Part shown: positions 5,170-60,783 of the stretch, one piece after another
How positions within the stretch are numbered: position 1 is the stretch's first letter
Layout of the letters: each line of letters begins with the position of its first letter
NCBI GenBank assembly: GCA_030390025.1
Contig: CM059431.1
Coordinates: forward strand, 143,718,001 to 143,782,000
Direction of reading: 5' to 3'
Length of the DNA stretch: 64,000 bases
DNA from: Squalus acanthias
Lineage: Eukaryota
Notes under the pieces: model-generated
The model's database searches: none
The model's input: the letters and a program-made list of their open reading frames with translations, nothing else
What the model was told of the DNA's origin: nothing
Program-made: the position numbers and the translations under genes

Positions 5170-5275
5170 TGAGAACAGAGTTAGCTCTCTCCACGGATGC
5201 TGCCTGGCCGCTGAGTCTTTCCAGCGTTTCCTGTTGTTATTTCGGATTTCCAGCATCCGCAGTATTTTGCTATCG
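5170..5275. mobile_element. ~100-bp short interspersed (Penelope-type) repeat fragment inserted in the 51-bp array, copy 1
   Basis: The array is interrupted by ...ccacggatgctgcctggccgctgagtctttccagc...ggatttccagcatccgcagtattttgc. The same tail recurs at ~41420-41452. Confidence 0.75.
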
Positions 5276-6549
5276 TATCTAATTTAGTAGATGATAAAGG
5301 TGCTATTATACTGACCAGTTCAGATGTATTTGATTTAGTAGATGGTGAAGGTGCTATTGTACTGACCAGTGAAGATGTATGTGATTTAGTAGATGGTGAG
5401 GGTGTTATTTTACTGACCAGAGCAGATGTATCTGATTTAGTAGTTGATGAAGATGTTATTGTGCTGACCAGAGAAAATGTATCTGATTTGTTAGATGAAT
5501 AAGGTGTTATTGTACTGACCAGAGAAGGTGTATCTGATTTAGTAGATGGTGAGGGTGTTATTTTACTGACCAGAGCAGATGTATCTGATTTAGTAGTTGG
5601 TGAAGTTGTTATTGTGCTGACCAGAGAAAATGTATCTGATTTGTTAGATGAATAAGGTGTTATTGTACTGACCAGAGAAGGTGTATCTGATTTAGTAGAT
5701 GGTGAGGGTGTTATTTTACTGACCAGAGCAGATGTATCTGATTTAGTAGTTGATGAAGATGTTATTGTACTGACCAGAGAAAATGTATCTGATTTGTTAG
5801 ATGAATAAGGTGTTATTGTACTGACCAGAGAAGGTGTATCTGATTTAGTAGATGGTGAGGGTGTTATTTTACTGACCAGAGCAGATGTATCTGATTTAGT
5901 AGTTGGTGAAGTTGTTATTGTACTGACCATAGAAGGTGTTTCTGATTTAGTAGATGGTGAAGGTGCTATTGTACTGACCATGGAAGGTGTTTCTGATTTA
6001 GTAGATGGTGAAGGTGCTATTGTGTCAACTAGAGAAGGTGTATCTGATTTAGTAGATGGTGAAGGTGCTATTGTACTGACCAGAGAAGATGTATCTCATT
6101 TAGTAGATGGTGAGAGTGTTATTGCGCTGACCAGAGAAGATGTATCTGATTTCGTAGGTGGTGAAGGTGCTATTCTACTGCCCAGAGAAGATGTATCTGA
6201 TTTAGTAGATGGTGAAGGTGTTATTGTACTGACCAGAGAAGATATATCTGATTTAATAGATGGTGAAGGTGCTTTTGTACAGACCAGAGAAGGTGTATCT
6301 GATTTAGTAGATGGGGAAGGTGTTATTGTACTGACCTGAGAAGATGTATTTGATTTAACAGATGGTGACGGTGTTATTGTACTGACCAGAGAAGATGTGT
6401 TTGATTTAGTAGAAGGGGAAGGTGTTATTGTACTGACCAGAGAAGATGTATCTGATTAGTAGATGGTGAGAGTGTTATTGCACTGACCAGAGAAGATGTA
6501 TCTGATTTAGTAGATGTTGAATGTTTTATTGTATCTGATTTAGTAGATT

Positions 6550-6655
6550 GTGAGAACTGAGTTAACTCTCTCCACGGATGCTGCCTGGCCGCTGAGTCTT
6601 TCCAGCGTTTTCTGTTGTTATATCGGATTTCCAGCATCCGCACTATTTTGCTGTC
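6550..6655. mobile_element. Same ~100-bp inserted repeat, copy 2
   Basis: Near-identical to 5170-5275, with the same left junction (gatttagtagattgtgagaac). Confidence 0.75.
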
Positions 6656-7326
6656 GTATCTGATTTAGTAGATGGTGAAGGTGCTATTATACTGACAAGT
6701 AAAGATGTATCTGATTTAGTAGATGGTGAAGGTGCTATTGTACTGACCAGAGAAGATGTATCTGATTTAGTATATGGTGAAGGTGCTATTGTACTGACCA
6801 GTGAAGTTGTATCTGATTTAGTAGTTGTTGAAGATGTTATTGTACTGACCAGAGAAAATGTATCTGATTTGGTAGATGAATAAGGTGTTATTGTACTGAC
6901 CAGAGAAGGTGTATCTGATTTAGTAGATGGTGAAATTGTTAAGGATTGACCAGAGAAGATGTATCTGATTTATTAGATGTTCGATGTGCTATTGTACTGA
7001 CCAGATAAGATGTATCTTATTTAGTAGATGGTGAAGTTGTTATTTTTACTGACCAGAGAAGATGTTTCTGGAATAGTAGTTGGTGAAGCTGTTTTTGTAC
7101 TTACCAGACATGATCTATCTGACTTAGTAGATGGTGAGATTGTTATTGCACTGACCATAGAAGGTGCATCTGATTTAGTAGATGGTGAAGGTGCTACTCT
7201 TCTCATCAGGGAAGAAGAATCTATGCTTAAAGATATTGAGCTGCTATTGAAATTGGGAGATGATGTTTCTGAATTAATAGATGATGAAGCTGTTACTCTA
7301 CTGGCCTGGGGATGATGTATCCTGAT

Positions 7327-10300
7327 TTAGGAATGATGAACGTGCTGTAGTACGGACCTGAATGTTGTAGCCTGATTAGTAGATGAGAGTGGTACTATAT
7401 TGAACTGGGATAGCGTAGCCTGATTAATAGATGATGATGGTGCTGTATTGATCTGGGATGGTGTAATCTGATTTATAGATGATGGTGATGCTGTATTGAC
7501 CTGGGATGGTGTAATCTGATTTATAGAGGATGATGGGGCTGTATTGACCTGGGATGGTGTAATCTGATTTATAGATGATGGTGGTGCTGTATTGACCTGG
7601 GATGGTGTAATCTGATTTATAGATGATGGTGGTGCTGTATTGACCTGGGATGGTGTAGTCTGATTTATAGATGATGTTGGTGCTGTATTGACCTGGAATG
7701 GTGTAGTCTGATTTATAGATGATGCTGGTGCTGTATTGACCTGGAATGGTGTAGTCTGATTTATAGATGATGATGGTGCTGCATTGACCTGGGATGGTGT
7801 AGTCTGATTTATAGAGGATGATGTTGTTATATTGACCTGGGATGGTGTGGTCTGCTTTATAGATGATGAACGGACTCTAGCACTGTCCTGCGATGTTTTA
7901 GATACCGCAAAAGTTAATGTCGACGCTGAATTTAAAGCCGGAAGCAGCATTGGTCTCATAGTGACAGCTGATGACTGTTGCATGGTTCTACCTGTCAGGG
8001 AGGGTGGAAACACATTGTTGTTTTCGGTCGATGATGGGGCCCTTGCCTTGTTGGAAGACGGAGGCACATTCACACTGTACAAGCTGGGCACACTCGCACT
8101 GCTCACGATAGGCACAGTCTCACTGGTCACAATGGGCACACTCGCACTGCTCACGATAGGCACAGTCTCACTGGGCACGGTGGGCACAGTCTCACTGTTC
8201 ACGATGGGCACAGTCCCACTGTTCAAAATGGACATCGTTTCACTGGTCACGATGGGCACAGTCTCACTAGTCACGTTGTGCACAGTGTCAATGGGCACGA
8301 TGGGCAGAGTCTCACTGGTCACGATGTGCACCGTCTCAGTGATCACGATGGGCACAGTCTCACTGGGCACGATAGGCAAAGTCTCACTGGTCACGATGGG
8401 GACAGGCTCAGTTTTCACGATGGGCACACTCGCACTCCTCACGATTGGCACAGTCTCACTGGTCATGATGGGCACCGTGTCAATTTTTACGATGGGCACA
8501 GTCTCACTGGTCACGATGGGCACAGTGTCACTGGTCACGATGGGCACAGTGTGAGTGGTCACGATGGGCACAGTCTCACTGGTCACGATGGGCACAGTGT
8601 CACTGGTCACGATGGGCACAGTGTGAGTGGTCACGATGGGCACAGTCTCACTGGTCACGATGGGCAGAGTCTCAGTGGTCACGATGGGCACAGTCTCACT
8701 GGTCACGATGGTCACAGTCTCACTGGTCACAATGGGCACAGTCTCACTTGTCACGATGGGCACAGTCTCAGTGGTCACGATGGTCACAGTTTCACTGGTC
8801 ACGATGGGCACAGTCTCACTGGGCACGATGGTCACAGTCTCACTGGGAACGATGGGCACAGTCTCACTGGTCACGATGGGCACAGTCTGAGTGTTCACGG
8901 TGGGCACAGTCTCACTGGGCACGATGGGCACAGTCTCACTGGTCACGATGGGTACAGTCTCACTGGTCACTATGGGGACAGTCTCAGTGTTCACGATGGG
9001 CAAAGTCTCACTGGTCACGATGGGCACAGTCTCACTGGTCACGATGGGGACAGTCTCAGTGTTCACGATGGGCCAAGTCTCACTGGTCACGATGGGCAGA
9101 GGCTCACTGGTCACGATGGGCACAGTCTCACTGGTCACGATGGGCAAAGTCTCACTGGTCACGATGGGCACAGTCTCACTGGTCACGATGGGCACAGTCT
9201 CATTGGTCACGATGGGTACAGTCTCACTGGTCACGATGGGCACAGCATCAGTGTTCACGATGGGCACAGTGTCACTGGTCACGATGGGCACAGTCACAGT
9301 GTTCACGATGGTGACGGTCTCACTGGTCACGATGTGCACAGTCTCAGTGTTCACGATGGGCACAGGCTCACTAGTCACGATGTGCTCAGTCTCAGTGTTC
9401 ACGATGGGCGCAGTCTCACTTGTCACGATGGGGACAGTCTCAGTGGTCACGATGGGTACAGTCTCACTGGTCACGATAGGCACAGTCTCAGTGGTCACGA
9501 TGGGCACAGTCTCACTGGTCACGATGGGTACCGTCTCACTGGTCTCGATGGGCAGAGTCTCAGTGGTCACGATGGTCACAGTCTCACTGGTCACGATGGG
9601 CACAGTGTCAGTGGTCACGATGGGCACAGTCTCACTGGTCACGATGGCCACAGTCTCACTGGTCACGATAGGCACAGTCTCACTGGTTACGATGGGCACA
9701 GTCTCACTGGTCACGATGGGCACAGTCTCAGTGGTCACGATGGGCACCGTCTCACTGGTCACGATGGGCACAGTCTCACTGATCACGATGGGTACAGTCT
9801 CAGTGGTCACGATGGGTACAGTCTCACTGGTCACGATGTGCACAGTCTCAGTGGTCACGATGGGTACAGTCTCACTGGTCACGATGGGCACAGTCTCAGT
9901 TGTCACGATGGGTACAGTCTCAGTGGTCACGATGGGCACATTCTCACTGGTCACGATGGGTACAGTCTCAGTGGTCACGATGGGTACAGTCTCACTGGTC
10001 ACGATAGGCACAGTCTCAGTGGTCACGATGGGTACAGTCTCAGTGGTCACGATGGGCACATTCTCACTGGTCACGATGGGCACAGTGTCACTGGTCACGA
10101 TGGGCACAGTGTCAGTGGTCACGATGGGGACAGTCTCACTGGTCACGTTGGGCACAGTCTCACTGGTCACGATGGGCACAGTCTCACTGGTCACGATGGG
10201 CACATTCTCACTGGTCACGATGGGTACAGTCTCAGTGGTCACGATGGGTACAGTCTCACTGGTCACGATAGGCACAGTCTCAGTGGTCACGATGGGTACA

Positions 10301-11483
10301 GTCTCAGTGGTCACGATGGGCACATTCTCACTGGTCACGATGGGCACAGTGTCACTGGTCACGATGGGCACAGTCTCAGTGGTCACGATGGGGACAGTCT
10401 CACTGGTCACGTTGGGCACAGTCTCACTGGTCACGATGGGCACAGTCTCACTGGTCACGTTGGGCACAGTCTCACTGGTCACGATGGGCACAGTCTCACT
10501 GGTCACGATGGGCACAGTCTCACTGGTCACGTTGGGCACAGTCTCACTGGTCACGATGGGCACAGTCTCAGTGGTCACGATGGGGACAGTCTCACTGGTC
10601 ACGTTGGGCACAGTCTCACTGGTCACGATGGGCACAGTCTCACTGTTCACGATGGGCACAGTCTCACTGGTCACGATGGGCACAGTCTCACTGGTCACGA
10701 TGGGTACAGTCTCACTGGTCACGATGTGCAAAGTCTCACTGGTCACGATGGGCACAGTCTCACTGGTCACGATGGGTACATTCTCACTGGTTACGATGGG
10801 CAGAATCTCCATGGTCACGATGGGCACAGTTTCACCGGTCACGACGGCTACAGTCTCACTGGTCACAATGGGCACAGTCTCAGTGGTCACGATGGGCACA
10901 GTCTCACTGATCACGATGGGCACAGTCACACTGATCACGATGGGCACAGTCTCACTGGTTACGATGGGCACATTCTCACTGTTCACGATGGGCACAGTCT
11001 CACTGGTCACGATAGGCACAGTCTCACTGGTTACGATGGGCACATTCTCACTGTTCACGATGGGCACAGTCTCACTGGTCACGATAGGCACAGTCTCACT
11101 GGTCACGATGGGCACAGTCTCACTAGTCACGATGAGCACAGTCTCACTGGTCATGATGGGAATGGTCACACTGGTCATGAAGGGCACAATCGCACTGATC
11201 CAAGAATCCATAATTGTGGATAAACTGGAAGCCACTAAGGATGCTGTAGAAGTTGGAGGCTGGGCTGTTGAACTGGGCTGTTGACCTGATCTACCAAGGG
11301 AAGAGGAGGTTTCCATTGATGCAGGGTGATTGGGCGATCGAGGCGCAGTTGAACTTCTCATGGACGTGGTTGTACTTTTGATGCGGTGGTTCACAATCCT
11401 GGAGTTGATAGAAAGTGGATTCTGGGATTCGCTGAGCGTCGGCAGCCCATTGGTCGCGGAATGCGCTCTGGTCATAGTTGTCA
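7327..11483 (-). CDS. Giant mucin-like (PTS-rich) exon, probable final coding exon of the cobalamin-binding protein gene
   Basis: Strong acceptor TTGTTTCTCCTACTTTGCACAG (AG at 11484-85), phase 1 and in frame with exon 6. The frame is open to TAA at 7327-29 and encodes ~1385 aa dominated by TSETVPIV and QVNTAPSSSINQITPS repeats. The link to exon 6 is inferred from phase and adjacency. Confidence 0.72.
7360..7870. repeat. 48-bp coding tandem repeat (QVNTAPSSSINQITPS on minus strand), ~10 copies
   Basis: Unit tgtattgacctgggatggtgtaatctgatttatagatgatggtggtgc. Confidence 0.93.
8090..11190. repeat. 24-bp coding tandem repeat (TSETVPIV on minus strand), roughly 125-130 copies
   Basis: Unit cactggtcacgatgggcacagtct, repeated with no frame-breaking indel. 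Confidence 0.97.
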
Positions 11484-11564
11484 CTGTGCAAAGTAGGAGA
11501 AACAATGTCAATAGATTATTGGAGGCAACGGGCAGTAAAGTTGGACATGGGCGAAGACGGAAAA

Positions 11565-11720
11565 CTGGGGGAATCACATTTGCCAACCGTTTTGCAACAC
11601 GCCTGATATTCGGTTCTGTTGGAAATAGTGGAATGAATATCGGGGTTTATAAAGAAAGAAACGGGCGACCGATGACATACCGTCGGTTTTGCGGCCCTGC
11701 TCTTGTCGAATTTCACCCAC
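11565..11720. mobile_element. Palindromic MITE-like short repeat
   Basis: Similar to 12496-12674: acacgcc(t/c)gatattc...gaatatcgg...gttttgcg...tgtcgaatttcacc. Confidence 0.55.
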
Positions 11721-12039
11721 AACTTCTGGAGACACGCTCAGAATCAGCGCATGTGAAAAGTGGAGCTCAGGCACAAACCAGCTCTGCATTCCAGTTAGTG
11801 CGACCATTGTCATATGTGAAGATCCCTGAGGATATCTACATTGGTGAACCTCCCGCTGGGAGTGAGGCCAAGCAGATGGCTCAGGGCGTCCAATTATTTC
11901 ACTTAGAAAACTGAGCAAACATAAAGGATTCAGGAAGGTCAAGGTGTGAATGGGTAAAATCCCAGCTTCAGTGCTCCTGGCAAATACCCTGGAGAAAATA
12001 TCATGAAACTGGACGGTGATTTAAAACTAACAGACGATG

Positions 12040-12260
12040 AATTGTTATGATCTGGAATGCACTGACTGAAAGTGTGGTGGAAGCAGATTCAAAGTCATTT
12101 CAAAGGGGATTTAGATAAATATTTATAGAGGAAAACTGCAGGACTATGGGGAGAGGGCAGGGCACTGGAACTAATTGGATTGCTCTTTCGAAGCGCCGAC
12201 ACAGGCACTATGGGTCGAATGGCCTCATTCTACACTGTTTCCTTCCATGATTCATTTCCA
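12040..12260 (+). mobile_element. CR1-type LINE 3' end fragment
   Basis: tggaatgcactg...gtggtggaagcagattca...ggg(t)cgaatggcct 3' end motif. Confidence 0.7.
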
Positions 12261-12495
12261 TTGGCTATTTCTTCTGCATTTTGATTCCTAACCCCATGCG
12301 AGTAGCTTCCCATCTGTACAGCCTGGGAGCAGCGCATCCAGGAAATTCTTGATCTCAGCTTTGCATTCTGGGAACGGAACCTGCCCGATTTTCCTTCCGT
12401 TATTTTCGTTGCAGCTTCTGTTCGGGCCGTGTAACCTTCCCGTCACATTCTCCCTTATTTACCCCGCCTATGCAGCTCTTAAAGCTGAGAGGCGT

Positions 12496-12674
12496 GGTGA
12501 AATTCGATGGGGATGGGGACGCGACACAGGAGGAATCGCTCTCACCAACCATTATATACACGCCCGATATTCAGTTCTTTTGAAGTCAATTGGACCGAAT
12601 ATCGGGCGGAGCGGATATCGGACGCCTGATGCGACACCGTTCGTTTTGCGACCTCGCCAATGTCGAATTTCACC
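12496..12674. mobile_element. Palindromic MITE-like short repeat
   Basis: Terminal inverted repeat ggtgaaattcga/tcgaatttcacc and internal palindrome cgcccgatattc...gaatatcgggcg. Related cores lie at ~15970, ~22340, ~26480 and ~34140. Confidence 0.6.
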
Positions 12675-12713
12675 GTCTCCCATACTTAGTCCGGTCTGTT
12701 GCTGTACCCTTAC

Positions 12714-12900
12714 CTTTATATACAGGACAGGTTATCTTGTTCACGTCCAGGTAACTCTTTCCTCCCAGGGCTATCGCCACCTGTGACATTGTTGTAAGGT
12801 TTTCCCAGTTTCCCCGAGAAATTTCTTGCACCATTTTCTGCACAGACTTGGTGCAATTATAGACACGTGAGGTGAACACGTTTATGTTTTCGTCCAGGGC
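12714..12900 (-). CDS. Cobalamin-binding protein gene, exon 6 (end of alpha domain)
   Basis: CAG acceptor and GTAAGG donor; 187 nt, phase 0-1. Translates ALDENINVFTSRVYNCTKSVQKMVQEISRGNWENLTTMSQVAIALGGKSYLDVNKITCPVYK, matching the family pattern AL...NC...EI..G..N....Q....L.GK.YLDV..+TC. Confidence 0.93.
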
Positions 12901-13144
12901 CTGGAGTGTAAAGAAGGTAACAATATTTTGAATATTCAATGTTAATGATCCGGAGATCATTTAGTGTGAGCACATATGAACTCTGTTTCAAAGCTCTGTA
13001 GCATAAAGTGGGAGTCATTGGAAATAAAAATCGGGAGAGATCGGGCTGCAGATTCGTCATCACCCATTTTACACCATCGCACAAACTCAAATCCTACCCC
13101 ACGTGCGTTCTGACCAGGGTACAGTTTAGATTAGATTGCAGTGT

Positions 13145-13440
13145 GGTGAGACCACACTTCGAGTATTGTGAATAGTCCTGGTCCGGTGAGACCACACTTA
13201 GAGTATTATGAATAGTCCTGGTCTGGTGAGACCACACTTAGAGTATTGTGAATAGTCCTGGTCTGGTGAGACCACACTTAGAGTATTGTGAATAGTCCTG
13301 GTCTGGTGAGACCACACTTACAGTATTGTGAATAGTTCTGGTCTGGTGAGACCACACTTAGAGTATTGTGAATAGTTCTGGTCTGGTGAGACCACACTTA
13401 CAGTACTGTGAATAGTTCTGGTTTAGACCACAATTAGAGT
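13145..13440 (+). repeat. 40-bp tandem repeat (~7 copies) derived from CR1 RT sequence
   Basis: Unit gtgagaccacacttagagtattgtgaatagtcctggtctg corresponds to the CR1 VRPHLEYC...WS segment. Confidence 0.9.
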
Positions 13441-13597
13441 ACCGTGCACTGCTCTGTTCTCCATATTACTAAAAGGAAGTAAAGGCACATCTCGAAGGTG
13501 CAATAAAAATATTGGCAATGATTATACCAGAATTCTGTGGTTATAACTATTAGGAAAGTTTTATCAGTTTGGGTGTTTTTCTATAGAAAAGAGAAGG

Positions 13598-15420
13598 GAA
13601 CCCAAAAATCTTCTACCAGCATGTAAACACTAAGCGGGTAGTAAGAGGCGGGCTGGGGCCTATTAGGGACAAAGAAGGTGATATATGCTTAGAGGCGTAG
13701 GGTAAGGCTAGAATACTCAAATAGTACTTTGTATCGGTGTTTACTAAAGAGGTGGATGCTGACAAAATATCGGTAGAAGTGGAAAAGGTAGAAGCAATGG
13801 AAGGGGTGAACATTGATAGACAGGACCTACTAGAAAGACAGGGTATGCTGCGAGTGGATAAGTCGCCTGGTCCAGATGGCTTGCATCCCAGGTTGCAAAG
13901 GGAATTGGGGGAGGATATAGCAGAAGGGCTTGCCATAATTTTCCAATCTTCGCTAGATGCGGGGGAGTTGCCTAAGAATTGGAAAATGGCAAATGTGACA
14001 ATATTGTTCAAGAAAGGGTTTAAGGACAATCCAAGTAACTATAGGTCGGTCAGTTTAACATCAGTGGTGGGTTACGTTTTAGAAACAATACTCAAGGAAA
14101 AAATTAACGGGCAACGAGTGGTTTAACCTAATTAAGGAGAGCCTACACGATTTGTAAAAGGCAGATCATGTTTCACTAATCTAATTGAAATTTTTGATGA
14201 AGTAACAGGGAGGATTGATAAAGGGAATGTAATGGATGTTGTCTACATAGATGGCTGGTTAACAAAATTGAGTTTCATGGATTAGATGGGTCAGTGGCAG
14301 CTTGGATAAGGAATTGGCTTAAGCACAGAAAACCACGAGTTGTGGTAAATGGCTATTTTTGAGACTGCAGGATGGTAGACAGTGGTGTTCCCCAAGGGTC
14401 AGTGCTGGGGCCACTGCTTTTCTTGATATATATAAATGACCTGAATATTGGAATACAAAGTAGAATTTCTAAATTTGCTGATGACACCAAACTTGGCGGG
14501 GGAGGGGTGGGGGTGGTGTGGCAAACAGTGAGGATGATACCAATCGGCTGCAACAGGACATAGAAAGGCTAGCAGAATGGAAAGTGAAGTGACAGATGGA
14601 ATTTAATACAGAGAAGTGTGAGGTGATGCATTTTGGCAGAAGGAACAGGGAAAGGCAATATACACTTAATGGCACAATCTTAAAGAGTGTGCAGTGACCC
14701 AGGGACGTGGGGGTTAATGTCATAGGTCCCTGAAGGTGGCAGGACATATTGAGAGAGTGGTTAGCAATGCCAATGTGATTTTGGGCTTCATAAATAAAGG
14801 TATTGAGCACAAAGGTAGAAAAGTTATGCTCAGCCTCTTTAAGGCGCTGGTTAGACCACAACTGGTGTATTGCATCCAGTTGTGGTCACCAAAGTTTAGG
14901 ATGGATATGAAGGACCTTGAGAAAATGCAGAGGAGATTTACCAGAATGGTTCCGGGGATGGGGGATCTTAGCTACAAGGACAGTTTGGAAAAGCTGGATT
15001 TGTTTTCATTAGAGCAAAGGAGGTTGAGGGATGATTTGATGGAGGTTTACAAGATTATGACGGGTTTGGATAGGCTAGACGGGGAAAGGCTTATCCCACT
15101 AGGTGATGATACAAGGACCAGGGGACAACGATTTAAGGTTTTGTGCAAGAGGTACAAGGGGGATGTGAGGAAAAAAAAATTTATGCGGCGAGAGGCGAAG
15201 ACCTGGAATTCGCTGCCGACGAAAGTTGTGGAAGCGGAGACACTCAATGCTTTCACGGGGAGACTGGGTAGGCATTTGATGGAATAAACTTGCAGGGCTA
15301 CGGGGATGGAGCGGGGGAATGGGACTGACTGGATTGCTCTACAGAGAGCCGGATTGGACTCGATGGGCCGAATGGCCTCGTTTTGTGCCGTTATGTCTCT
15401 ATTAATCTTTGATTCTATTA
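13598..15420 (+). mobile_element. Degenerate 5'-truncated CR1 LINE (RT), nested in an older CR1 fragment (13440-13597 and 15421-15780)
   Basis: [36 protein letters not shown] and WNSLP motifs with stops and frameshifts. The host CR1 resumes at 15421. Confidence 0.9.
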
Positions 15421-16365
15421 CTGAAAGGTGAACTAAAAGAGGTCTTCAAAATTATGAAAGGATTTGATAAGGTAAACGTAGAGAAGATGTCTCCACTTGC
15501 AGGGTGAGTCCAAAACTAGGGTCCATACATATAAGATCGCCACTCATAAACCCAACAAGGAATTTAGGAGAAACTTCTTAACGAGAGAGTGGATAGAAAT
15601 TGTAACTCGCTATCACAAGGAGTAGCAGAGGAGGCGAATAGCAAAGATTGATTTAAGGGAAATCTACATGAAGGAGAAAGGAATAGAAGGATATGGTGAT
15701 AGGGTTAATAGGGCGGGAGGAGCCTCGTGTGGCCCACAAACACACGAAAGGCCTGTTTCTGTACTGAACATTCCATTTAAAGATTGTCCTCTTTGAATTT
15801 GAAGTCAACTAGTTTCTCAATATAACAAAACCATCCTGTTTACATTGCTTATCGTCACTTCAGTGTATTGATTTAATGAGCATTGAGTCATTCGCTTTCT
15901 TTTGTGGTAACTTTAACTTTGAGCGATGATGCACAATGGCCAATTTTGAATTAACCGCCCATTGTATACCACGCCCGATTTTCCTTTGCATTGAATCCAT
16001 GGAAGGTAAAATCTGGCGCCTGTAAATTAGAGAGCAATTGGATATTACCCATTTTACACCTTCACCAAAAGTTAAAATCACCCCTTAAATCTATTTCAAC
16101 CAATGCCCTCCGCTCCTGGCGAGTTCTATCCCATGAAAGATATCGAGGTGTCTCAGAATCTTCCAACAGGCTGTATTTTGCATTGCTTCACACTGAACGT
16201 CATCTGAACACATTAAGCACCGATACACCAATATGGCAATATCGTTTCTATGCTCTAATTGTTTATGGTCCATCGCTTAATATGTTGCGAAGAAGCTGTT
16301 AATTACTAACTGCCCTTAGCGCTAATTAAACTAGAAACCTATTTTCTAATTTCACATCACCATAC

Positions 16366-16541
16366 CTGCATGGCCAGCCCTGTACTGCTCAAGCTCCCAA
16401 TGGTCCCGTCCTCTCTCACTTCACTTAGAATCCGCCTCATTATCCACATTAATGCCTTTGCGATGTCAAGCCGAGATCTGCCTCTTGGTTGTTGCGAGTG
16501 TATCCAACACCTCAGACTAAGTGCCGCGGTGGCCATTGTAT
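16366..16541 (-). CDS. Cobalamin-binding protein gene, exon 5 (alpha domain)
   Basis: TAG acceptor and GTATGG donor; 176 nt, phase 1-0. Translates (D)TMATAALSLRCWIHSQQPRGRSRLDIAKALMWIMRRILSEVREDGTIGSLSSTGLAMQ, matching the VDTxAMAxLALxC and DGxIGxxxSTGLAMQ family signatures. Confidence 0.93.
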
Positions 16542-16669
16542 CTACAACACAGGAAACAATTACCATCGGTTCATGGAGTAAATTTGACAGGAGGGTCGGT
16601 AACGAGAGGACACAGATGTACGATATTGACAAAAGATCCTGAGGGGACATGGGGAGTCATTTTTATTTT

Positions 16670-16900
16670 TTATGCAGCGAATATAACCTGGAATGGACTG
16701 CCTGAACGGGGGGTGGAAGCAGATTCAATGGTGACTTTAAAAAGGGAATTTGATATATACTTGATAAGGATACAAATACAGGGTTATGGCCTATGGGGAA
16801 AGAGAAGGGAGAGTGGGATTAATTGGGGAGCTATTTCAAAGAGCCTCCACAGGTAAGATGGGCCGACATGCCTCCTTCTGTAAGTTTGGCTGATTCTATG
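16670..16900 (+). mobile_element. CR1-type LINE 3' end fragment
   Basis: Encodes WNGLPERGVEADS...KREFDIYL, followed by the 3' UTR motif. Confidence 0.75.
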
Positions 16901-17274
16901 ATGTCCGAAGCCGACAAGGCACGAGCGATCCGAGAACCCATTGATGAAGAGACGCTTCCCAAATTTCCAATCATTTTACTCACAGCCGGTGACCAATGGA
17001 CTCCATCCAGCACAAGTTTACCAATCATTGATTGCAGTGACACGGCCTTGTCCCGAAACAGAACTGTACGGGTCTTAGCTAGAAATTGAATTGGGGGTAA
17101 TGGGGACAAGACTGAGATTATGAAATGCTACTTGTAATAAAACATGCAAGGGGTGAAATGGCATTTGGGCGGGAAATCAATTCAGGCGAAATCGCATTTT
17201 ACGAGCGTTATTTAGTTCTATTGGCCGTTTTGCGGCCCCGCCCAGGTCCAATTACAGCGCCCACACTTCTCCAA

Positions 17275-17635
17275 TCGTAACCTGTGAACCCAGGTAACCA
17301 CTTTCAAAACTCCATCAAATGGATATCTTCAACAATCGTAACCCGTGAACCCAGGTAACCTCCTTCAAAATTCTAGCAAATGGATATCTTCACCGACCGT
17401 GACCTGTGAACCCCGGTAACCTCTTTCTAAAACTCCATCAAATGGATATCTTCACTGACTGTAACCTGTGAACACCGGTAACCTCTTTCTAAAACTCCAT
17501 CAAATGGATATCTTCCCCGACCGTAACCTGTGAACCCGGGTAACCTCGTTCAAAACTCCATCAAATGGATATCTTCACTAACCGTAACCTCTGAACCCGG
17601 ATAACCGCTTTCAAATCTCCCTCAAATGGATATTT
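17275..17635. repeat. ~60-61-bp tandem repeat, ~6 copies (intron 4)
   Basis: Unit cgtaacctgtgaacccaggtaacctctttcaaaactccatcaaatggatatcttcacc. Confidence 0.9.
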
Positions 17636-17676
17636 TAGAAATTATAAATTGAAACGTCTTGTCTGCTCAGACACAC

Positions 17677-17832
17677 CTACAGTTAATTCTTTCCCGTGTT
17701 GAGCGATCTTCCTGAGATGAGCCCGGATGAAATTATGAATGAGAAAGCCCGGGACAGGTTCCTCCTCCTGACACAGCGCCAGGATCGCCAGGCTGGCTTC
17801 AGTAAAGGCCTTGAGAGAATATCCAGCGTTTT
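17677..17832 (-). CDS. Cobalamin-binding protein gene, exon 4 (alpha domain)
   Basis: CAG acceptor and GTGTGT donor; 156 nt, phase 1-1. Translates NAGYSLKAFTEASLAILALCQEEEPVPGFLIHNFIRAHLRKIAQHGKELTV; SLAILALCQ is the intrinsic-factor-type motif. Confidence 0.92.
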
Positions 17833-18284
17833 CTGTAAATACAGTGACAGACTCCAATGTTAGTGATGTGCTCCACATCTGAATAACGGGAACAACAGAT
17901 GTGAGAATTCCTCACTAGTTCGTTCTCGATCATCTCTGTGTGCCAGAAATCAGGCCAAGGATTTAAATGAATTAAATAGAATTGGTGTAGAATTTACAGC
18001 ACAGAAGGAGGCTTTTCGGCCCAACAGGTCTAATTATGCTCCACATGAACCTTACTTCATCTCACTGGAGCAGCTTACCCGAGGGAGCAATTCCTTTCTC
18101 CTTCGTGACCTTGTCTAACTTCGCCTTAAATACATCTATACAATTCGCCTCAACTTCTCCTGTGCTATCAAATTCCACATTCTCGCCACTCTATCGGGAA
18201 AATAAGTTTCTCCTGAATCCCCCATTGTTTTTAGTACTGACTCTACAGCGGACTACTGCTCTCCAGCATGGTTATCCAATCCAC

Positions 18285-21200
18285 ATGATTATGGAGAGAG
18301 GTACAGACTGAGCTGTGAGTGCAATTGGAATTTATGGGGACAGGTACAGACTGAGATGTGAGTGTAATTGGAATTTATGGGGACAGGTACAGACTGAGAT
18401 ATGAGTGTGATTGGAGGTTATGGGGACAGGTACAGACTGAGATATGACTGTGATTGGAGGTTATGGGGACAGGTACAGACTGAGATATGAGTGTGATTGG
18501 AGGTTATGGGGACAGAGACAGACTGAGATATGAGTGTGATTGGGGGTTATGGAGAGAGGTGCAGACTGAGATGTGAGTGTGATTGAAGGTTATAGGGACA
18601 GGTACAGGCTGAGATATGAGTGCGATTGGAGTTTATGGGGACAGTTACAGACTGAGATGTGAGTTTGATTGGAGGTTATGGAGAGAGGTACAGTCTGAGA
18701 TCTGAGTGTGATTCCTCGTTATAGTGACAGGTACAGACTGAGTTGTGAGTGTGATTGGAGGTTATGGAGAGAGGTACAGTCTGAGATGTGAGTGTGATTC
18801 CTGGTTATGGGGACAGGTACAGACTGAGATGTGAGTGTGATTCCTGGTTATGGGGACAGGTACAGACTGAGATGTGAGTGTGATTCCTGGTTATGGGGGC
18901 AGGTACAGACTGAGATATGAGTGTGATTGGAATTTATGGGGACAGGTACAAACTGAGATATGATTGTGATTGGAGGTTTTGGGGACAGTTACAGACTGAG
19001 ATGTGAGTTTGATTGGAGGTTATGTGGACATGTACAGACAGAGATATGAGTGTGATTGGAGGTTATGGGGACAGGTACAGAATGAGATGTGAGTGTGATT
19101 GGAGGTTATGGGGACAGGTACAGACTGAGATATGAGTGTGATTGGAGGTTATGGGGACAGGTACAGACTGAGATATGAGTGTGATTGGAGGTTATGGGGA
19201 CAGGTACAGTCTGAGATGGGAGTGTGATTGCTGCTTATTGAGAGAGGTACAGACTGAGATGTGAGTGTGATTGGAGGTTATGTGGACAGGTACAGAATGA
19301 GATATGAGAGTGATTGGAGTTTATGGGGACAGGTACAGACTGAGGTATGAGTGTGATTGGAATTTATGGAGACAGGTACAGACTGAGATGTGAGTGTGAT
19401 TCCTGGTTATTGGGACAGGTATAGACTGAGATGAGAGTGTGATTGCTGGTTATGGAGACAGGTACAGACTGAGATGAGAGTGTGATTGGAGGTTATGGGG
19501 ACAGGTACAGACTGAGATGTGAGTGTGATTGGAGGTTATGGGGACAGGTACAGACTGAGATGTGAGTGTGATTCCTGGTTATGGAGACAGGTACAGTCTG
19601 AGATGTGAGTGTGATTGGAGGTTATGGGGACAGGTACAGACTGAGATGTGAGTGTGATTCCTGGTTATGGGGACAGGTACAGTCTGAGATGTGAGTGTGA
19701 TTCCTGGTTATGGGGACAGGTACAGACTGAGATGTGAGTGTGATTCCTGGTTTTGGAGACAGGTACAGTCTGAGATGTGAGTGTGATTCCTGGTTATGGA
19801 GACAGGTACAGACTGAGATGTGAGTGTGATTCCTGGTTATGGAGACAGGTACAGACTGAGATGTGAGTGTGATTGGAGGTTATGGGGACAGGTACAGACT
19901 GAGATGTGAGTGTGATTGGAGGTTATGGGGACAGGTACAGACTGAGATGTGAGTGTGATTGGAGGTTATGGGGACAGGTACAGACTGAGATGTGAGTGTG
20001 ATTGGAAGTTATGGAGAGAGGTACAGACTGAGATGTGAGTGTGATTGGAGGGTATTGTGTGAGGTACAGACTGAGATGTGAGTGTGATTGGAGGTTATGT
20101 GGACAGGTACAGAATGAGATATGAGAGTGATTGGAGTTTATGGGGACAGGTACAGACTGAGGTATGAGTGTGATTGGAATTTATGGAGACAGGTACAGAC
20201 TGGGATGGGAGTGTGATTACAGGTTATGGAGAGAGGTACAGACTGAGATGTGAGTGTCATTCCTGGTTATGGGGACAGGTATAGACTGAGATGTGAGTGT
20301 GATTGGAGGTTATGTGGACAGGTACAGACTGAGATATGAGTGTGGTTGGAGGTTATGTACACAGGTACAGACTGAGATATGAGTGTGATTGGAGGTTATG
20401 TGGACAGGTACAGACTGAGATATGAGTGTGATTGGAGGTTATGTGGAAAGGTACAGACTGAGATATGAGTGTGATTGGAATTTATGGGGACAGGTACAAA
20501 CTGAGATATGATTGTGATTGGAGGTTATGAGGACAGTTACAGAATGAGATGTGAGTGTGATTGGAGGTTATGTGGACAGGTACAGACTGAGATGTGAGTG
20601 TGATTCCTGGTTATGGGGAGAGGTACAGACTGAGATGTGAGTGTGATTCCTGGTTATGGGGAGAGGTACAGACTGAGATGTGAGTGTGATTCCTGGTTAT
20701 GGGGACAGGTACAGACTGAGATGTGAGTGTGATTCCTGGTTATGGGGAGAGGTACAGACTGAGATGTGAGTGTGATTCCTGGTTATGGGGACAGGTACAG
20801 ACTGAGATGTGAGTGTGATTCCTGGTTATGGGGACAGGTACAGACTGAGATGTGAGTGTGATTGCTGGTTATGGGGACAGGTACAGACTGAGATGTGAGT
20901 GTGATTCCTGGTTATGGGGACAGGTACAGACTGAGATGTGAGTGTGATTCCTGGTTATGGAGCGAGGTACAGACTGAGATGGGAGAGTGGTTGGATGTTA
21001 TGGAGAGAGGTACAGACTGAGATGTGAGTGTGATTGGAGGTTATGGAGAGAGGTACAGACTGAGATGTGAGTGTGATTGGAGGTTATGGGGTCAGGTACA
21101 GACTGAGATGTGAATATGATTGCTGGTTATGGGGACAGGTACAGACTGAGATATGAGTGTGATTCCTGGTTATGGGGACAGGTACAGACTTAGATGTGAG

Positions 21201-21460
21201 TGCGATTGCTGGTTATGGGGACAGGTACAGACTGAGATGTGAGTGTGATTCCTGGTTATGGCGACAGGTACAGACTGAGATGTGAGTGCGATTGCTGGTT
21301 ATGGGGAGAGGTACAGACTGAGATGTGAGTGTGATTGCTGGTTATGGGGAGAGGTACAGATTGAGATGTGAGTGTGATTCCTGGTTATGGGGACAGGTAC
21401 AGACTGAGATGGGACTGTGATTGGAGGTTATGGAGAGAGGTACAGACTGAGATGTGACTG
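18285..21460. repeat. 43-bp minisatellite, ~74 copies (intron 3)
   Basis: Unit gagatgtgagtgtgattggaggttatggggacaggtacagact, with an alternating attcctggtt variant. Confidence 0.97.
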
Positions 21461-21548
21461 TGTTTGTTGGTTTTCAGCTTGTGTTTGCTGAAAGATGCTT
21501 CTCAATCTCTATGCAAATAACATGGCTAAAGTATGAGTCTACATTTAC

Positions 21549-21719
21549 CTTTAGAAGTTGTTATCCTAGGTATGTGATGCAGTTCACTGTACAGCCTCTC
21601 ATGTAGCATCTCCACCAAATTCACCTCCTTGTTCCCTGCCGATATCTTGGCGGAGTTCCGACAAGAGGATCTGAAGGCTAAGATGTGGTAAACCAACTGG
21701 TCTATGGGGAAGTGTTCAC
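21549..21719 (-). CDS. Cobalamin-binding protein gene, exon 3 (alpha domain)
   Basis: Not in the ORF track. Pyrimidine tract plus CAG acceptor and GTAAAT donor; 171 nt, phase 1-1. Translates EHFPIDQLVYHILAFRSSCRNSAKISAGNKEVNLVEMLHERLYSELHHIPRITTSK, matching the GQLxLxIxALxSSC family motif. Confidence 0.88.
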
Positions 21720-22699
21720 CTGGCGGCAGAGGAACAAACGAGATTCAGTTTGTTCTGACTGGGTCCATCAATACCTAACTGGTTAGTGATTATAAATTCC
21801 TCTTCTGCACTCTGAAGACTTGTATTAATATTCCACCTTATTCTAACTCTCAAAGTGCTTCAAGTACAATAAATTATTTGAAGTGCAGCTACCCTTGTTA
21901 TATCGACCAATTCGGGAGCCATTTTGTGGACAGTCATATCCCACAAACAGCACTGAAGTAGTTAACCAGTTCTAAATTCTTAACTAGCGACACGGTAAAT
22001 GGATTAACTGGTAATGTATTTCATTGGTACTTGTGACATCTTGTGTCCAATTGGTTGTCGAGGTTGTCTATGAAAGAAGAGTGGCTGCATTTCATTGGCT
22101 GTGAAGCAAATGCACGACAGAAATGTAAGTTTCTCCCTCTTCACTCTCCTCTCTCTTTAAACTACTTTGGGTGTTAGCTGGGGAATAAATGTTGGCCAAG
22201 TCCCCGGCAGCATTCTCCCTTCTTGTTCCAATAAAGCCGTGTCAGCTTCAAATTCCACAAGAAAAGATTCTGGGGATAATTTTAGATTCAGACGATATTG
22301 TAAAATAGGCGACACCGAATTGGCCTCCGATTAAAGATCCCGCCCGATTTTCACCTACATTGCAATGGAAAATCAAGCGTGGTGTAAAAGGGCAGCTGAT
22401 GCAACTTAGAGCAGGGGACAGTGTAATGATTTCTGATTTCAAAACAACGAGAGAGCAAGAAGCAGAACCACCGTGCAGGATGGGGGAATATAGGGTTTAG
22501 GTGGAAGAACATCGGAATGTTTAGACCTGCGAAATAATTTCCATAATAGTATCATGAACAAAGGTGGTGCAATAAATGACTGCTCGGCCCATTCACCTGA
22601 GGGCAGAATTCCAGCGAGAAGTCTCCCTCCCTCCCTCTCTTCATCTTCCTCTGTATGTGTCAGTTTCCCTCTTTCTCCATCTCACTCTTTCTCTTCCTC

Positions 22700-22701
22700 A
22701 A

Positions 22702-22733
<32 letters not shown>

Positions 22734-22955
22734 GTACAGACTCGGATATATATGTACACACATACACATATAAACACTTTCAGACACGTATACACACACA
22801 GACACACATATGCATACAGAAGCACAGACACACAGAAACGCAGAGACATACACACACACAATCGCAAAGAAACCCACAGAAAGATATACACAAAGAAACA
22901 TGGAAACACACACACACATATACATATACACACAAACACACACACACATATACAG
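22700..22955. repeat. Degenerate (CA)n/(TACA)n microsatellite
   Basis: Low-complexity CA-rich run. Confidence 0.9.
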
Positions 22956-23645
22956 AAACTTCAATGGCACATTGCTGCAAATTAATCCCTGGGATCTTGA
23001 TTCAAATGGTTGTGAAATTGTAGACTGTAATAAAATGAACTGCACTGGGGAAAAGAAGGAGAATCGCATGAGGTGTGTGAACTTTCAACATTGGCTCTCA
23101 CAAAATAGGCGCCACCGACAGTCATATTAGCTGCTATTTTTAAATTACCCTGTTTATTTTAAATGGACGAAATCCTCTATTCGGAACATTGGAATTGCTG
23201 GGGTGACTAAAGACAAAGGTGCCTCTAATTCTTCGTCTACCATCCTTGTAGTCGCATGATACAATGACATTGAGGTTGTTGTATAATCATCGTAATCAGT
23301 CTCTATAAATTAGTTTATAACAGACACAGACACGAGGCGAGGAATACCCGGTGCTGGAGAGCTTTGTGAACCATAGATACAAAATCACCTGTTCCTCCCA
23401 AGCACGCTACACTGACCATGTGTAAAGTCTCAAATTACACATATACTCTATCTCAAATGTTACGTTTTAATGTCAAACAGAGCAATACGACATGAACGGG
23501 CTAGAAGTTGGGTCACTATTATCATGGGGCCATTTCTAGGTTCCAATTTCCTTCATTAACAATAGTTTGCCAGCCACTCATCCTGTCAACAGTAATAAAG
23601 ATTTTATCCAGATACATCCACATTACCTAATAGTTGACTCCTTAC

Positions 23646-23828
23646 CTGATCCAACCTTTCTAACAGCCGCCTCACTCAGCCTTCGGAGAATGTCTTGTTC
23701 ACTCTGCAGATCATGCTCACTCCCCAGGCGCAGGGCAATGAAAGCCCCGGGGTCTGGCTCCACGGACAGATCACTCAGTTTCCTCTCTATACTCCGGAGA
23801 AGTGATTTCTGCTGATTATCTGGAGCCG
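23646..23828 (-). CDS. Cobalamin-binding protein gene, exon 2 (alpha domain)
   Basis: CAG acceptor at 23829-31 and GTAAGG donor; 183 nt, phase 1-1. Translates APDNQQKSLLRSIERKLSDLSVEPDPGAFIALRLGSEHDLQSEQDILRRLSEAAVRKVGS; PDPGAFIALRL resembles the family motif (P/L)NPSIxIxLxL. Confidence 0.88.
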
Positions 23829-23899
23829 CTGGAATCCACAACCCAATTATTAATCCACTCGCGTGTAATGAACATTAAGATAGCAGTAACACTTAAAGA

Positions 23900-24950
23900 G
23901 CTTGAGGATAATCAGAAGGCGCATGTGGCCGGTGAACACAACATATGAACATACAGTAAGAACATGTATTGTGGTAAACAGTGAGGAGGATAGTAGCAGA
24001 CTTCAGGAGGACACAGACAGACTGAGGAGAGGTAATATAAACCAAATAGTACAATTGTATTCGGGGCGCAGGAAGAGAGAGACCTCGGGTTCACGTACAC
24101 AAATCTCTGAAGGTGACAGGACTTATTGACAAATCTTTAAATAAAACATGGCGGGATCCTTGGCTTTCCAAATAGAAGCGATGTTGTGGAGATGCCGGTG
24201 TTGGACTGGGGTGGACAAATGTGAGAAGTCGCACAACACCAGGTTATAGTCCAAATAAAGCTCTTGGACTATAACCTGGTGTTGTGCGACTTCTCACATT
24301 TCTAAATAGACGCACAGAGTAGAAAAGCAAAGAATTTGTGGCAAAGGTTTATTAATCATTAGTTAAGCTTCAGTTGGTGCATTGTGTCCAATTCTGAGCA
24401 ACACACTTTAGTCAAGGCCTTGGAGAGGATGCAGAGGAGATTTACAAGAATGGTAGCAGGGATGAGGGCCTTCAGTTATGTGGAGAGACTGATGAAGCTG
24501 GGATTGTTCTCCTTAGAGTAGAAAAGGTTAAAGGGAGATTTAATAGGGGTGATCAAAATCCTGAAGAGTTTTGATAGAGTAAATAAGAAGAAACTACTTC
24601 CACTGGCAGAAGATTCAGTGTCAGAGGACAAACACTTAAAGTAACTGGCAGAAGAAACATCGGGGAATGGCGGTGTGGGGGGAGGGGTGGAATTAAAGAG
24701 ATTTAAAAACAATTCAGCAATGTTGCTGCGATCTGGAATGCATTGCCTGAAATGGTGATGGAAACATATTCAATACTAAATTTCAAAAGGGGAATTAGAT
24801 GAATACATGAAGAGGAAAAGGGGCAGGAATTTGGGGAAAGAGCAGGGTGGGTGGACTATTTGCTCTTTCAGAGAGCAGACAGAGGTACGATGGGCCGAAT
24901 GGGCTCCTTCTGCACTTAAGGTTCCATGATTCTATAATTCTTTGATTCTA
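23900..24950 (+). mobile_element. Degenerate CR1 LINE 3' portion (intron 1)
   Basis: RT C-terminal remnants (RLQED, RRFTRMV, WNAL-type) and the 3' UTR motif; interrupted at 24180-24300. Confidence 0.8.
24180..24300. mobile_element. Penelope-type inverted-repeat insertion with deleted centre
   Basis: Hairpin aatgtgagaagtcgcacaacaccaggttatagtccaa...ttggactataacctggtgttgtgcgacttctcacatt, flanked by an imperfect duplication tttccaaatagaagc/tttctaaatagacgc. Confidence 0.75.
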
Positions 24951-25029
24951 AATTACGAAAGAACTCAGTTAAAGGATAAACATCAGGTTTAGGTTCAACA
25001 CTGGGAACTAATCAACAGATCGCACTTAC

Positions 25030-25099
25030 TGCATTGCTGAGATGTTGCCGGGTACGAGACACTGAAGAGCAGGAGTGTGAGGGTCATCACCGGGGGCAT
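25030..25099 (-). CDS. Cobalamin-binding protein (transcobalamin/intrinsic factor family)-mucin gene, coding exon 1 (signal peptide)
   Basis: ATG at 25099 translates MPPVMTLTLLLFSVSYPATSQQC: a hydrophobic core, then Cys, then a phase-1 donor GTAAGT at 25029. Exon 1 of the TCN/CBLIF family has the same layout. Confidence 0.85.
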
Positions 25100-60025: not shown

Positions 60026-60783
60026 GAGTAAATTGCCTAGATTATCAACTTGGAAAGTTGGTATCAGGTCGACTGTCCATTATACACCCTGCCCGATTAT
60101 CATTTCCATTTAGTTCTATTCCATTAAAGGTAACTGACAGAACATTACAGGCTGCTTGCTGTAATTTCCTGAAGTGATGTCCCAGGGAGTGACGTTCCAC
60201 GACAGGTTCTACCGCCCGGATTGAGTCTCTGCCGAAGTTGGAATTGACCCCCGGTGATGCAGGGGGAGGAAAAACCTGCACAGCCTCGGGTTTTCAATCC
60301 TCATTTTTTGGGGGTTAGTTGTCCTGTTTGGGTCTCATACATTTTAGCCATTTTACCCTTTTGTTTTTGTTCTTGAAGAGCCTCTCATTTACTGCGCAGA
60401 TTATTCTTCTCATCTCTCAGTTCCTTAATTTCCATTAAGTAGTTCCAGGTCAGTAAACTCATGACCTTCCATTTAATCCCGGTTAGTTGCCTCTGGTCTC
60501 TCCTTTTCCCAGTCCCACTAAAACTGTTTCCCTTTGTTTTCAGTCCACACAAGAGTTGTATCGGAACTGTTCCCCTGTCCTTTGTACAGATACTGTCGGA
60601 TCCGCTGGGTATTTTCACCTCTTCATATCATAGCTTCAGATTCACAATATTTTCAGTTTTATACATTTCTTTCCTATTTGACCTGTTTCTCTTCCGTAAC
60701 ATTCTATGATTCTAAGATCTGATTTCCTGTCAGTTCTGTGATGTTTGAATAATTCAAACTCATTCTGTGTCCCTCCCACTCAC

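Follow-up and report, generated by a model that had tools for sequence, protein, structure and literature searches.

The window analysed here, a stretch of 64,000 nucleotides (nt) of the 3.7-Gb genome of Squalus acanthias (C7:143718001-143782000), carries on its minus strand a gene in which six exons for the alpha domain of a cobalamin (vitamin B12) binder are followed by a putative seventh exon built largely of tandem repeats rich in proline, threonine and serine (PTS). Cobalamin carriers are textbook two-domain clamps, and in the predicted product of this gene the repeat tail would stand in the place of the linker and the beta domain. An initial annotation of this DNA had read the two parts as one protein, a candidate cobalamin-binding mucin.

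The intrinsic-factor-like head

The six exons lie within 25099-12714 and were located by requesting AG...GT intervals of the previously reported lengths (70/183/171/156/176/187 nt) that are open in some frame. All of them, with their AG/GT borders and with the phases given by the running sums of their lengths (1,1,1,1,0,1), were recovered at the coordinates implied by the initial annotation. Spliced together, they yield a stop-free product of 314 amino acids (aa) that carries SLAILALCQ, DTMATAALSLRC, STGLAMQAL (with the border of exons 5 and 6 between STGLAMQ and AL) and GKSYLDV, and the initially claimed N-terminal domain, without stops or frameshifts, is present. Exon 1 (25030..25099, 70 nt) supplies the ATG and a signal-peptide-like start, MPPVMTLTLLLFSVSYPATSQQC, and ends in phase 1 at a GTAAGT donor; it is 92-94% conserved in two paralogs, and the Mustelus model P0013 has a similar N-terminal start. 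Read from the sequence itself rather than by a predictor, this segment would be a signal peptide.

The remaining exons encode the alpha domain and are matched one after the other by the Pfam profile PF01122 (Cobalamin_bind): exon 2 (23646..23828; profile positions 29-79), to which Narcine and Mustelus proteins also align in tblastn searches; exon 3 (21549..21719; positions 90-128); exon 4 (17677..17832; positions 136-180), which contains SLAILALCQ and, at the position of the haptocorrin motif TNYYQ, the residues KAFTE; exon 5 (16366..16541; positions 183-240), which runs from DTMATAALSLRC to STGLAMQ and aligns with residues 150-207 of intrinsic factor; and exon 6 (12714..12900; positions 253-297), which completes the alpha domain with GKSYLDVNKITCPVYK and closes with a phase-1 GTAAGG donor. 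The match is colinear over positions 29-297 of the 317 in the profile, and exons 5 and 6 singly exceed the 25-bit cut-off, with 35.2 and 40.7 bits; these two are also the ones picked up here by a PF01122 scan of the genome. Among solved structures, the nearest by sequence are those of human intrinsic factor, followed by haptocorrin and transcobalamin. Both the Pfam comparison that the initial annotation had proposed as a check and its assignment of the alpha domain to the transcobalamin/intrinsic-factor family are hence borne out, and by its sequence the head is a real member of the TCN1/TCN2/CBLIF family.

A HMMER search with exon 6 against 1.84 billion representative sequences returned 12 matches, among them two Mustelus asterias models labelled "cobalamin binding intrinsic factor-like" (XP_078087636.1 and XP_078087635.1, 330 and 372 aa), a model of the electric ray Narcine bancroftii labelled "mucin-2-like" (XP_069792302.1, P0003; 993 aa) and a canonical "CBLIF-like" protein of Heptranchias (430 aa) with both PF01122 and PF14478. 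In tblastn comparisons, predicted proteins homologous to the window gene match its exons one by one at identical borders. Over the full alpha domain, the identity of the window protein is 70% with Mustelus XP_078087636.1 (297 aa), 59% with the Narcine model and 37% with the Heptranchias protein; in a phylogenetic tree the window gene groups with a paralog, Mustelus and Narcine at support 100/100, in a clade on a long branch apart from the canonical binders. An AlphaFold model of the Mustelus homolog that shares 70% identity with the window protein (predicted local distance difference test score, pLDDT, 77.6; predicted template-modelling score, pTM, 0.80) retrieves human intrinsic factor (2PMV) as its best Foldseek match (E 7e-11, query template-modelling score, TMq, 0.70), and ranks 1-15 are all chains of intrinsic factor, haptocorrin or transcobalamin (E 7e-11 to 3e-8, TMq 0.65-0.71). 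Judged on this homolog, and not on the window protein itself, the head would adopt the alpha6/alpha6 barrel fold.

The 314-aa product has six cysteines, at QQC, SSC, LALC, SLRC, YNC and ITC, and three cysteine positions are invariant or nearly so in an alignment of 10 family proteins (C282, C324, C118). For the alpha domain of rat transcobalamin, the part of the published account drawn on here lists four disulfides (PMC11107200); the cysteines of the window protein occupy all six positions of three of them and would presumably pair likewise. At the site aligned with TNYYQ, which is described as the corrin-contact motif of the haptocorrin alpha domain in the relevant section of PMC4350170, the window protein reads KAFTE, as compared with KTFNE in Mustelus, KVLTE in Narcine, SAFYG in human intrinsic factor and TNYYQ in haptocorrin.

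A separate observation concerns an uncharacterised model among the relatives, from the whale shark Rhincodon typus (XP_048476665.1, P0011; 494 aa), which comprises the end of an alpha domain, ~130 aa rich in P/S/T/A/G and a further alpha domain. Its branch in the tree is very long, and the model may have been fused from tandem genes.

A putative repeat exon at the position of the linker and beta domain

Exon 6 is followed by intron 6 (11484..12713, 1230 nt), which contains a repeated transposable-element-like sequence and ends in a phase-1 acceptor with a polypyrimidine tract (TTGTTTCTCCTACTTTGCACAG, with its AG at 11485-11484). The putative exon 7 that opens there (7327..11483, 4157 nt) consists of 1385 codons plus a stop (7327-7329), encoding a PTS/V-rich tail, and is open in the frame set by the phase-1 donor of exon 6, for a predicted coding sequence (CDS) of 5100 nt and 1699 aa; in sequence and frame, these elements are as first claimed. 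Exon 7 starts with ~95 non-repetitive codons (11198..11483). The rest is dominated by two minus-strand arrays delimited with Tandem Repeats Finder, namely array 1 (8063..11197), with 130.6 copies of a 24-nt unit whose consensus is TSETVPIV, and array 2 (7309..7869), with 11.6 copies of a 48-nt unit, SSINQTTPSQVNTAP. Together, arrays 1 and 2 make up a long Ser/Thr/Pro-rich tandem-repeat domain in one large exon.

The same program delimits a third minus-strand array, not included in the initial annotation, beyond the exon 7 stop (1462..7193; 111.8 copies of a 51-nt unit, TITPSPSTKSDTSSLVS). It has 9 in-frame stops and 56 synonymous versus 348 non-synonymous changes, and is probably untranslated in the window copy, either as 3' untranslated region (UTR) or as decayed sequence; its poly(A) signals are too frequent, in AT-rich sequence, to be informative. 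Array 3 also has a higher-order structure, in which blocks of open reading frame (ORF) recur at an offset of 971 bp, and a non-repeat insert (IRYDSKI.RMLEIR.NNRKRWKDSAARQHPWRELT.FSQ) that occurs twice, near 5283 and 6664, and again in the copies of the gene on C3500 and C1065.

In composition, the tail is T 21.9%, V 19.1%, S 12.6%, P 11.5%, I 10.8% and E 8.2%. Its S+T+P content of 46% is on the low side for a mucin, V+I amount to 30%, cysteine is absent, and the C-terminus (...FRSVLQHVHHS) is not hydrophobic. Exon 7 matches no Pfam family in the 1384 aa searched, and the tail has no VWD, C8, TIL, CK or SEA domain and no transmembrane segment. These features fit a predicted tail that is mucin-like without belonging to a gel-forming or a membrane mucin, and its composition suggests that it would probably be densely O-glycosylated. 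Hence, of the "giant mucin" initially proposed, the long PTS tandem-repeat tail stands, whereas the S+T+P content and the lack of gel-forming or membrane mucin domains do not support the term in its full sense. Secreted non-gel-forming mucins and mucin-like PTS proteins offer a close parallel, in that they likewise have a single large S/T/P-rich repeat exon, variable repeat number and a signal-peptide-like start; the window tail differs from them in having only 46% S+T+P and 30% Val+Ile, and its glycosylation is predicted. As to the origin of the repeats, it was considered, and rejected, that the TSETVPIV unit might descend from VTQAVPIRV, a sequence at the junction of linker and first beta strand in the canonical protein, the similarity being non-significant (30/500 and 69/500 shuffles reached the score).

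The start of the repeat exon coincides exactly with the point at which intrinsic factor passes into its linker and beta domain. A C-terminal beta domain (DUF4430, PF14478) was not found in the window gene, and a tblastn search with the linker-plus-beta portion of the canonical shark protein found none in 274 kb comprising the window, 10 kb downstream of it and the fetched paralog loci; an equivalent search at the canonical loci on C1824, C13 and C474 recovers beta exons, which lie 3-9 kb past exon 6. Genome-wide, only 4 beta exons were recovered, on C1824, C13 and C474 (two places). A scan of the genome with PF14478 itself gave nothing at E <= 0.001 and a single weak match on C474 (E 2.9); the canonical protein was used in tblastn instead because the profile is split by introns. 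The initial annotation had named splicing past the repeats to beta-domain exons outside the window as an outcome that would tell against it, and no such exons were found by tblastn within 10 kb downstream. The border of exon 6 at the start of the linker and the lack of a beta domain in the stretch searched support its view that the tail would take the place of linker and beta domain. The canonical-type binder genes of the same genome lie at C1824:105250-111664, C13:56460526-56496029, C474:6963-62829 and C12:103838524-103849179, the one on C1824 being 61-65% identical to the Heptranchias CBLIF-like protein.

In comparison with known systems, the gene shares with intrinsic factor (CBLIF/GIF; 2PMV, 3KQ4), TCN1 and TCN2 the PF01122 alpha domain, STGLAMQAL, GK.YLDV and three disulfide positions, and SLAILALCQ is identical between the window protein and human intrinsic factor. 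It differs from all three in being without linker and beta domain (DUF4430), in its predicted ~1385-aa repeat tail, in its at least 13 copies and in its placement in a separate long-branch clade. The closest counterpart in architecture is the Narcine model XP_069792302.1, which combines PF01122 as its only domain with a ~620-aa T/S/P/V-rich tail of V-V-T-E..T-V-P-like units and falls in the same clade; it differs in its shorter, degenerate tail without near-perfect 24-nt units and in an N-terminus without an obvious signal peptide. The Mustelus asterias models have the closest alpha domain and the same exon borders and differ by ending without a PTS tail. Teleost Tcn-like proteins with DUF4430 only are also on record in the portions of PMC4350170 and PMC11107200 that were available. 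They too are natural half-binders, showing that the two domains can be separate gene products, but they represent the opposite half, with the primary cobalamin site, and are short and without repeats. The binders described for chondrichthyans in the available text of Lopes-Marques et al. 2014 (PMC4350170), the one paper on them that the literature searches turned up, are Tcn1/Gif, Tcn2 and a divergent two-domain Tcn3. The Tcn3 of the little skate is likewise a highly divergent, elasmobranch-specific binder in that account, and differs, by its description, in having alpha and beta domains and in being enriched in the stomach (PMC4350170).

Literature searches on transcobalamin/CBLIF, mucins, elasmobranchs and Tcn3 found no report of an alpha domain with a mucin-like tail. 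Word-based protein searches, which are insensitive, so that other species may have the architecture, gave nothing for exon 6 against longer proteins, only the query itself for the Narcine alpha domain against proteins of 546-1738 aa, and only low-complexity bacterial matches for the tail against proteins of 761-2422 aa. The statement that no known protein has this architecture therefore holds for the papers found and needs amending for the databases, where the uncharacterised Narcine "mucin-2-like" model has it.

Copy number, selection and the coding status of the tail

The gene is not unique. A scan of the genome with PF01122 gives 46 exon matches, and there are at least 13 recent loci of the window type, several of them broken: eight on C7 at 137.8-143.7 Mb, together with those on C3361, C3500, C3521, C1065 and C1142. 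Full exon sets were compared for two of the 12 other copies, and exons 3-6 or 4-6 for two more; the exons of the other copies are 90-98.7% identical to those of the window. In all 12 the same repeat exon begins ~1.2 kb after exon 6, with the three array types of the window behind it, while none of the six fetched loci has window-type arrays behind canonical-type exons. The length of the arrays varies among copies from ~25 to ~270 units. In four copies, homology reaches more than 3 kb past array 3, which means that segments larger than the gene were duplicated. Of the broken copies, the one on C1142 lacks 10 nt of exon 4, carries one extra nucleotide in exon 6 and runs into a stop five codons after the start of exon 7; that on C3500 has lost donor and acceptor and has one stop; that on C1065 has lost both splice sites; and one C7 copy (L012) has a GG donor. 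In their variable number, their array lengths and their several pseudogenes, the copies turn over by birth and death.

Among the three intact-looking copies for which most exons could be compared, the ratio of non-synonymous to synonymous substitution rates (dN/dS) of the alpha exons is 0.34, 0.32 and 0.20, with binomial p values against neutrality of 0.001, 0.023 and 0.0003, the three comparisons not being independent. Across the 13 copies, the density of variable sites per column is 0.107 in exon 6 as against 0.179 in intron 6. The head is kept by purifying selection, and the tail is without residue-level constraint.

Several lines of evidence nonetheless suggest that exon 7 is coding and joined to exon 6. 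Its unique start is open in the frame that exon 6 dictates by its phase, and on the minus strand arrays 1 and 2 are open in this frame alone; between the two arrays, one frame is free of stops and the others contain 3 and 4. The 94-95 codons of the unique start are open in only 118/5000 shuffles. They are open in 11/13 copies, the two with stops being otherwise broken, and the acceptor AG is kept in 11/13 copies and the donor GT in 10/13. Relative to its consensus, array 1 has 62 synonymous, 148 non-synonymous and 0 stop codon changes, and the array units pooled from the 13 copies (n=1472) have 3 in-frame stops. The G>T change that creates a stop (in GAG) is the rarest G>T, with 4 occurrences against 7-42 at six other G sites, in units that are not independent of one another. 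The most important support comes from the Narcine model, in which PF01122 at residues 72-374 is directly followed by ~620 aa of degenerate repeats of the same type. Exon 7 aligns with this tail at ~30% identity (E 4e-19, to array 1), and the openness of the Narcine tail is not explicable by homogenised units because its repeats are degenerate.

A considerable body of observations weighs against this. The opposite strand is open in all three frames, with plus-strand frames of 1062 and 797 aa, so that openness within the arrays is weak evidence of coding. In its unique start, exon 7 varies like intron 6 (0.206 versus 0.179 variable sites per column), with the variable sites spread evenly over codon positions 1/2/3 (16/22/21); in array 1, the synonymous share of 62/210 codon changes (30%) is about neutral. 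Read-through from array 1 to array 2 is found in only 4/13 copies, the others having a stop or a shift of frame within the array; five copies carry 8 frame-changing slips between them in the arrays, frameshifts inside array 1 are seen in the copies at C7:142.25, 138.41 and 143.13 Mb and on C3521 and C1065, and some of the array interruptions may be assembly errors. Further, neither Mustelus model (330 and 372 aa) has a PTS tail, the two stopping 2 and ~70 residues past exon 6, and one of them seems to read the start of exon 7 in another frame (19 aa, a weak match, E 0.11). Three small sequencing runs with the same species label (~0.00 of words) cover, on 11150-18250, only transposon-like parts of introns, and their joints are irregular, with none at an exon border, so that they give no evidence either way on the splice. 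The Narcine model is moreover an automatic one, whose join of alpha domain and tail is itself predicted. In the head, the corrin-contact motif TNYYQ is replaced by KAFTE; this substitution is not decisive because intrinsic factor itself has SAFYG there.

Weighing these points, we consider it rather likely that exon 6 is spliced to the repeat exon. We would put at roughly 60% the probability that the locus, to all appearance intact, belongs to a cobalamin-binder subfamily that is specific to elasmobranchs, has been amplified recently and has the tail in place of linker and beta domain. The strongest competitor, which we hold to be clearly less probable, is a secreted alpha-only protein of ~320-370 aa that ends soon after exon 6, with the arrays as non-coding minisatellites in a last intron, in the 3' UTR or downstream, and with an open frame that follows from repeat units whose lengths are multiples of 3 and from a low potential for stops. 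Such a protein would be just what the Mustelus models XP_078087636.1 and XP_078087635.1 depict, ending right after the alpha domain, and would agree with a tail that evolves at the rate of an intron without codon-position bias, with the interruption of 9/13 copies before array 2, with the open frames of the opposite strand and with the clear decay of array 3. It leaves unexplained, however, the coincidence of the frames of the unique start and of arrays 1 and 2 with the phase of exon 6 (with the unique start open in so few shuffles), the retention of the acceptor in all but two copies, the rarity of the stop-creating change in the pooled arrays and, above all, a Narcine model that runs from the alpha domain into a 620-aa degenerate open tail. 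It would also be conceivable that the locus is a non-functional relic and that the whole family goes back to a TCN-like pseudogene without a beta domain, whose segmental duplicates are in decay, with the window copy open by chance. The lesions of the C1142, C3500, C1065 and L012 copies would suit this idea, as would the flanks shared for more than 3 kb beyond the gene, which indicate that copies spread as larger segments. It is made improbable by dN/dS values of 0.20-0.34 with p <= 0.023 in all three comparisons, by the greater conservation of exon 6 than of its intron, and by the presence of the subfamily in shark and ray lineages with an open alpha domain that is 59-70% identical, which implies long-term maintenance.

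The surroundings of the gene hold another amplified sequence. An exon of NOD-like receptor (NLR) type at 47008-48541 (-) matches NACHT (2e-36), the NOD2 winged-helix domain and NLRC4 HD2; 382 candidate copies of its DNA were counted across the genome, and the 40 that received a score are each 94-100% identical. Several copies of this exon lie in C7 137-144 Mb along with the alpha-tail genes, at no fixed distance from them.

Possible function and significance of the proposed fusion

The predicted product of 1699 aa would consist of a signal peptide, a disulfide-braced intrinsic-factor-like barrel of ~290 aa and a tail of ~1385 aa. From its sequence it is expected to be secreted, as a non-gel-forming mucin-like glycoprotein with a globular head, and its extended, probably O-glycosylated tail could serve to keep the head in or on mucus. 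What such a head might bind has to be considered in the light of the biochemistry of the two-domain carriers, as given in the accessible parts of PMC5599065 and PMC11107200: the beta domain takes up cobalamin first, and the alpha domain subsequently closes over the ligand; the separated alpha and beta domains of transcobalamin (TC-alpha and TC-beta) assemble only on addition of cobalamin; and TC-alpha was purified without cobalamin, while TC-beta needed to be washed free of it. Since the beta domain binds first and the alpha domain purifies empty, a head without beta domain is unlikely to act as a high-affinity scavenger alone, and picomolar affinity for B12 on its part seems improbable.

These facts bear directly on the idea of a true cobalamin-binding mucin that by itself captures B12 or other corrinoids in mucus, for uptake or for nutritional immunity. 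In its favour, purifying selection acts on the head, which is an alpha domain of the intrinsic-factor type, the isolated alpha and beta domains each bind cobalamin somewhat according to the part of PMC11107200 that was available, and the NLR-rich region fits a defence role without showing one. On the other hand, cobalamin is bound first by the beta domain and TC-alpha is purified empty (PMC5599065, PMC11107200), no beta domain is found here, with 4 beta exons in the genome as opposed to at least 13 alpha-tail copies, and the TNYYQ motif is not kept. This explanation is hence unlikely, and the stand-alone B12/corrinoid scavenger of the initial annotation is in conflict with the domain biochemistry as published in the accessible parts of those papers (PMC5599065, PMC11107200).

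For the alpha-tail fusion, the role we would prefer is that of a barrel with another ligand or partner. Next in preference comes a half-clamp that would dock on separately encoded complexes of beta domain and cobalamin, and after it weak, multivalent binding of corrinoids. The latter two may be combined in the speculative picture of a mucus-anchored split intrinsic factor, in which the tethered alpha half-clamp would close on cobalamin held by a free beta domain, either host-made or of a microbial DUF4430 type, or in which corrinoids would be bound weakly by densely presented heads. B12 traffic could thereby be concentrated or withheld in the mucus layer, by a family that would be evolving like immune genes in an NLR-rich region. 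We regard this picture as slightly less probable even than the stand-alone cobalamin-binding mucin.

An alpha-only form with a mucin-like tail does not appear in the literature searched, although it is present in one automatic model. Provided that the fusion is expressed, it would represent a new vertebrate way of deploying half a vitamin carrier at a mucosal surface and would offer a direct handle on the function of the alpha domain in its own right. The at least 13 near-identical copies, with their spread of array lengths and frequent pseudogenes, are a clear case of recent birth and death in a large genome of the shark type. Should the arrays prove non-coding, there would remain an amplified alpha-only intrinsic-factor-like family, still unreported and of modest interest.

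Several further features of the window lie in the introns of the gene and around it. A 43-nt minisatellite (18289..21466; 73.9 copies, 90% identity) fills most of intron 3 and has a strong GC skew. Intron 5 contains a reverse-transcriptase fragment of the long interspersed nuclear element (LINE) type (13600-15450), and it is on account of this insertion 2 kb longer here than in the paralogs. In intron 6, an open frame of 148 aa at 11574-12020 (-), which is kept at 152-170 aa in at least six paralogs, falls where the three small sequencing runs give very high read depth and is probably part of a dispersed repeat rather than an exon. LINE-type ORFs with RVT_1 matches (3e-37 and 2e-34) lie at 42991-44871 (+) and 53120-54895 (-). 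Finally, a further long tandem repeat at 58009-60174 is open on both strands, for example with IPTSCSLPITVNIPPSL units in a frame of 518 aa, and has a GC skew of 0.68.

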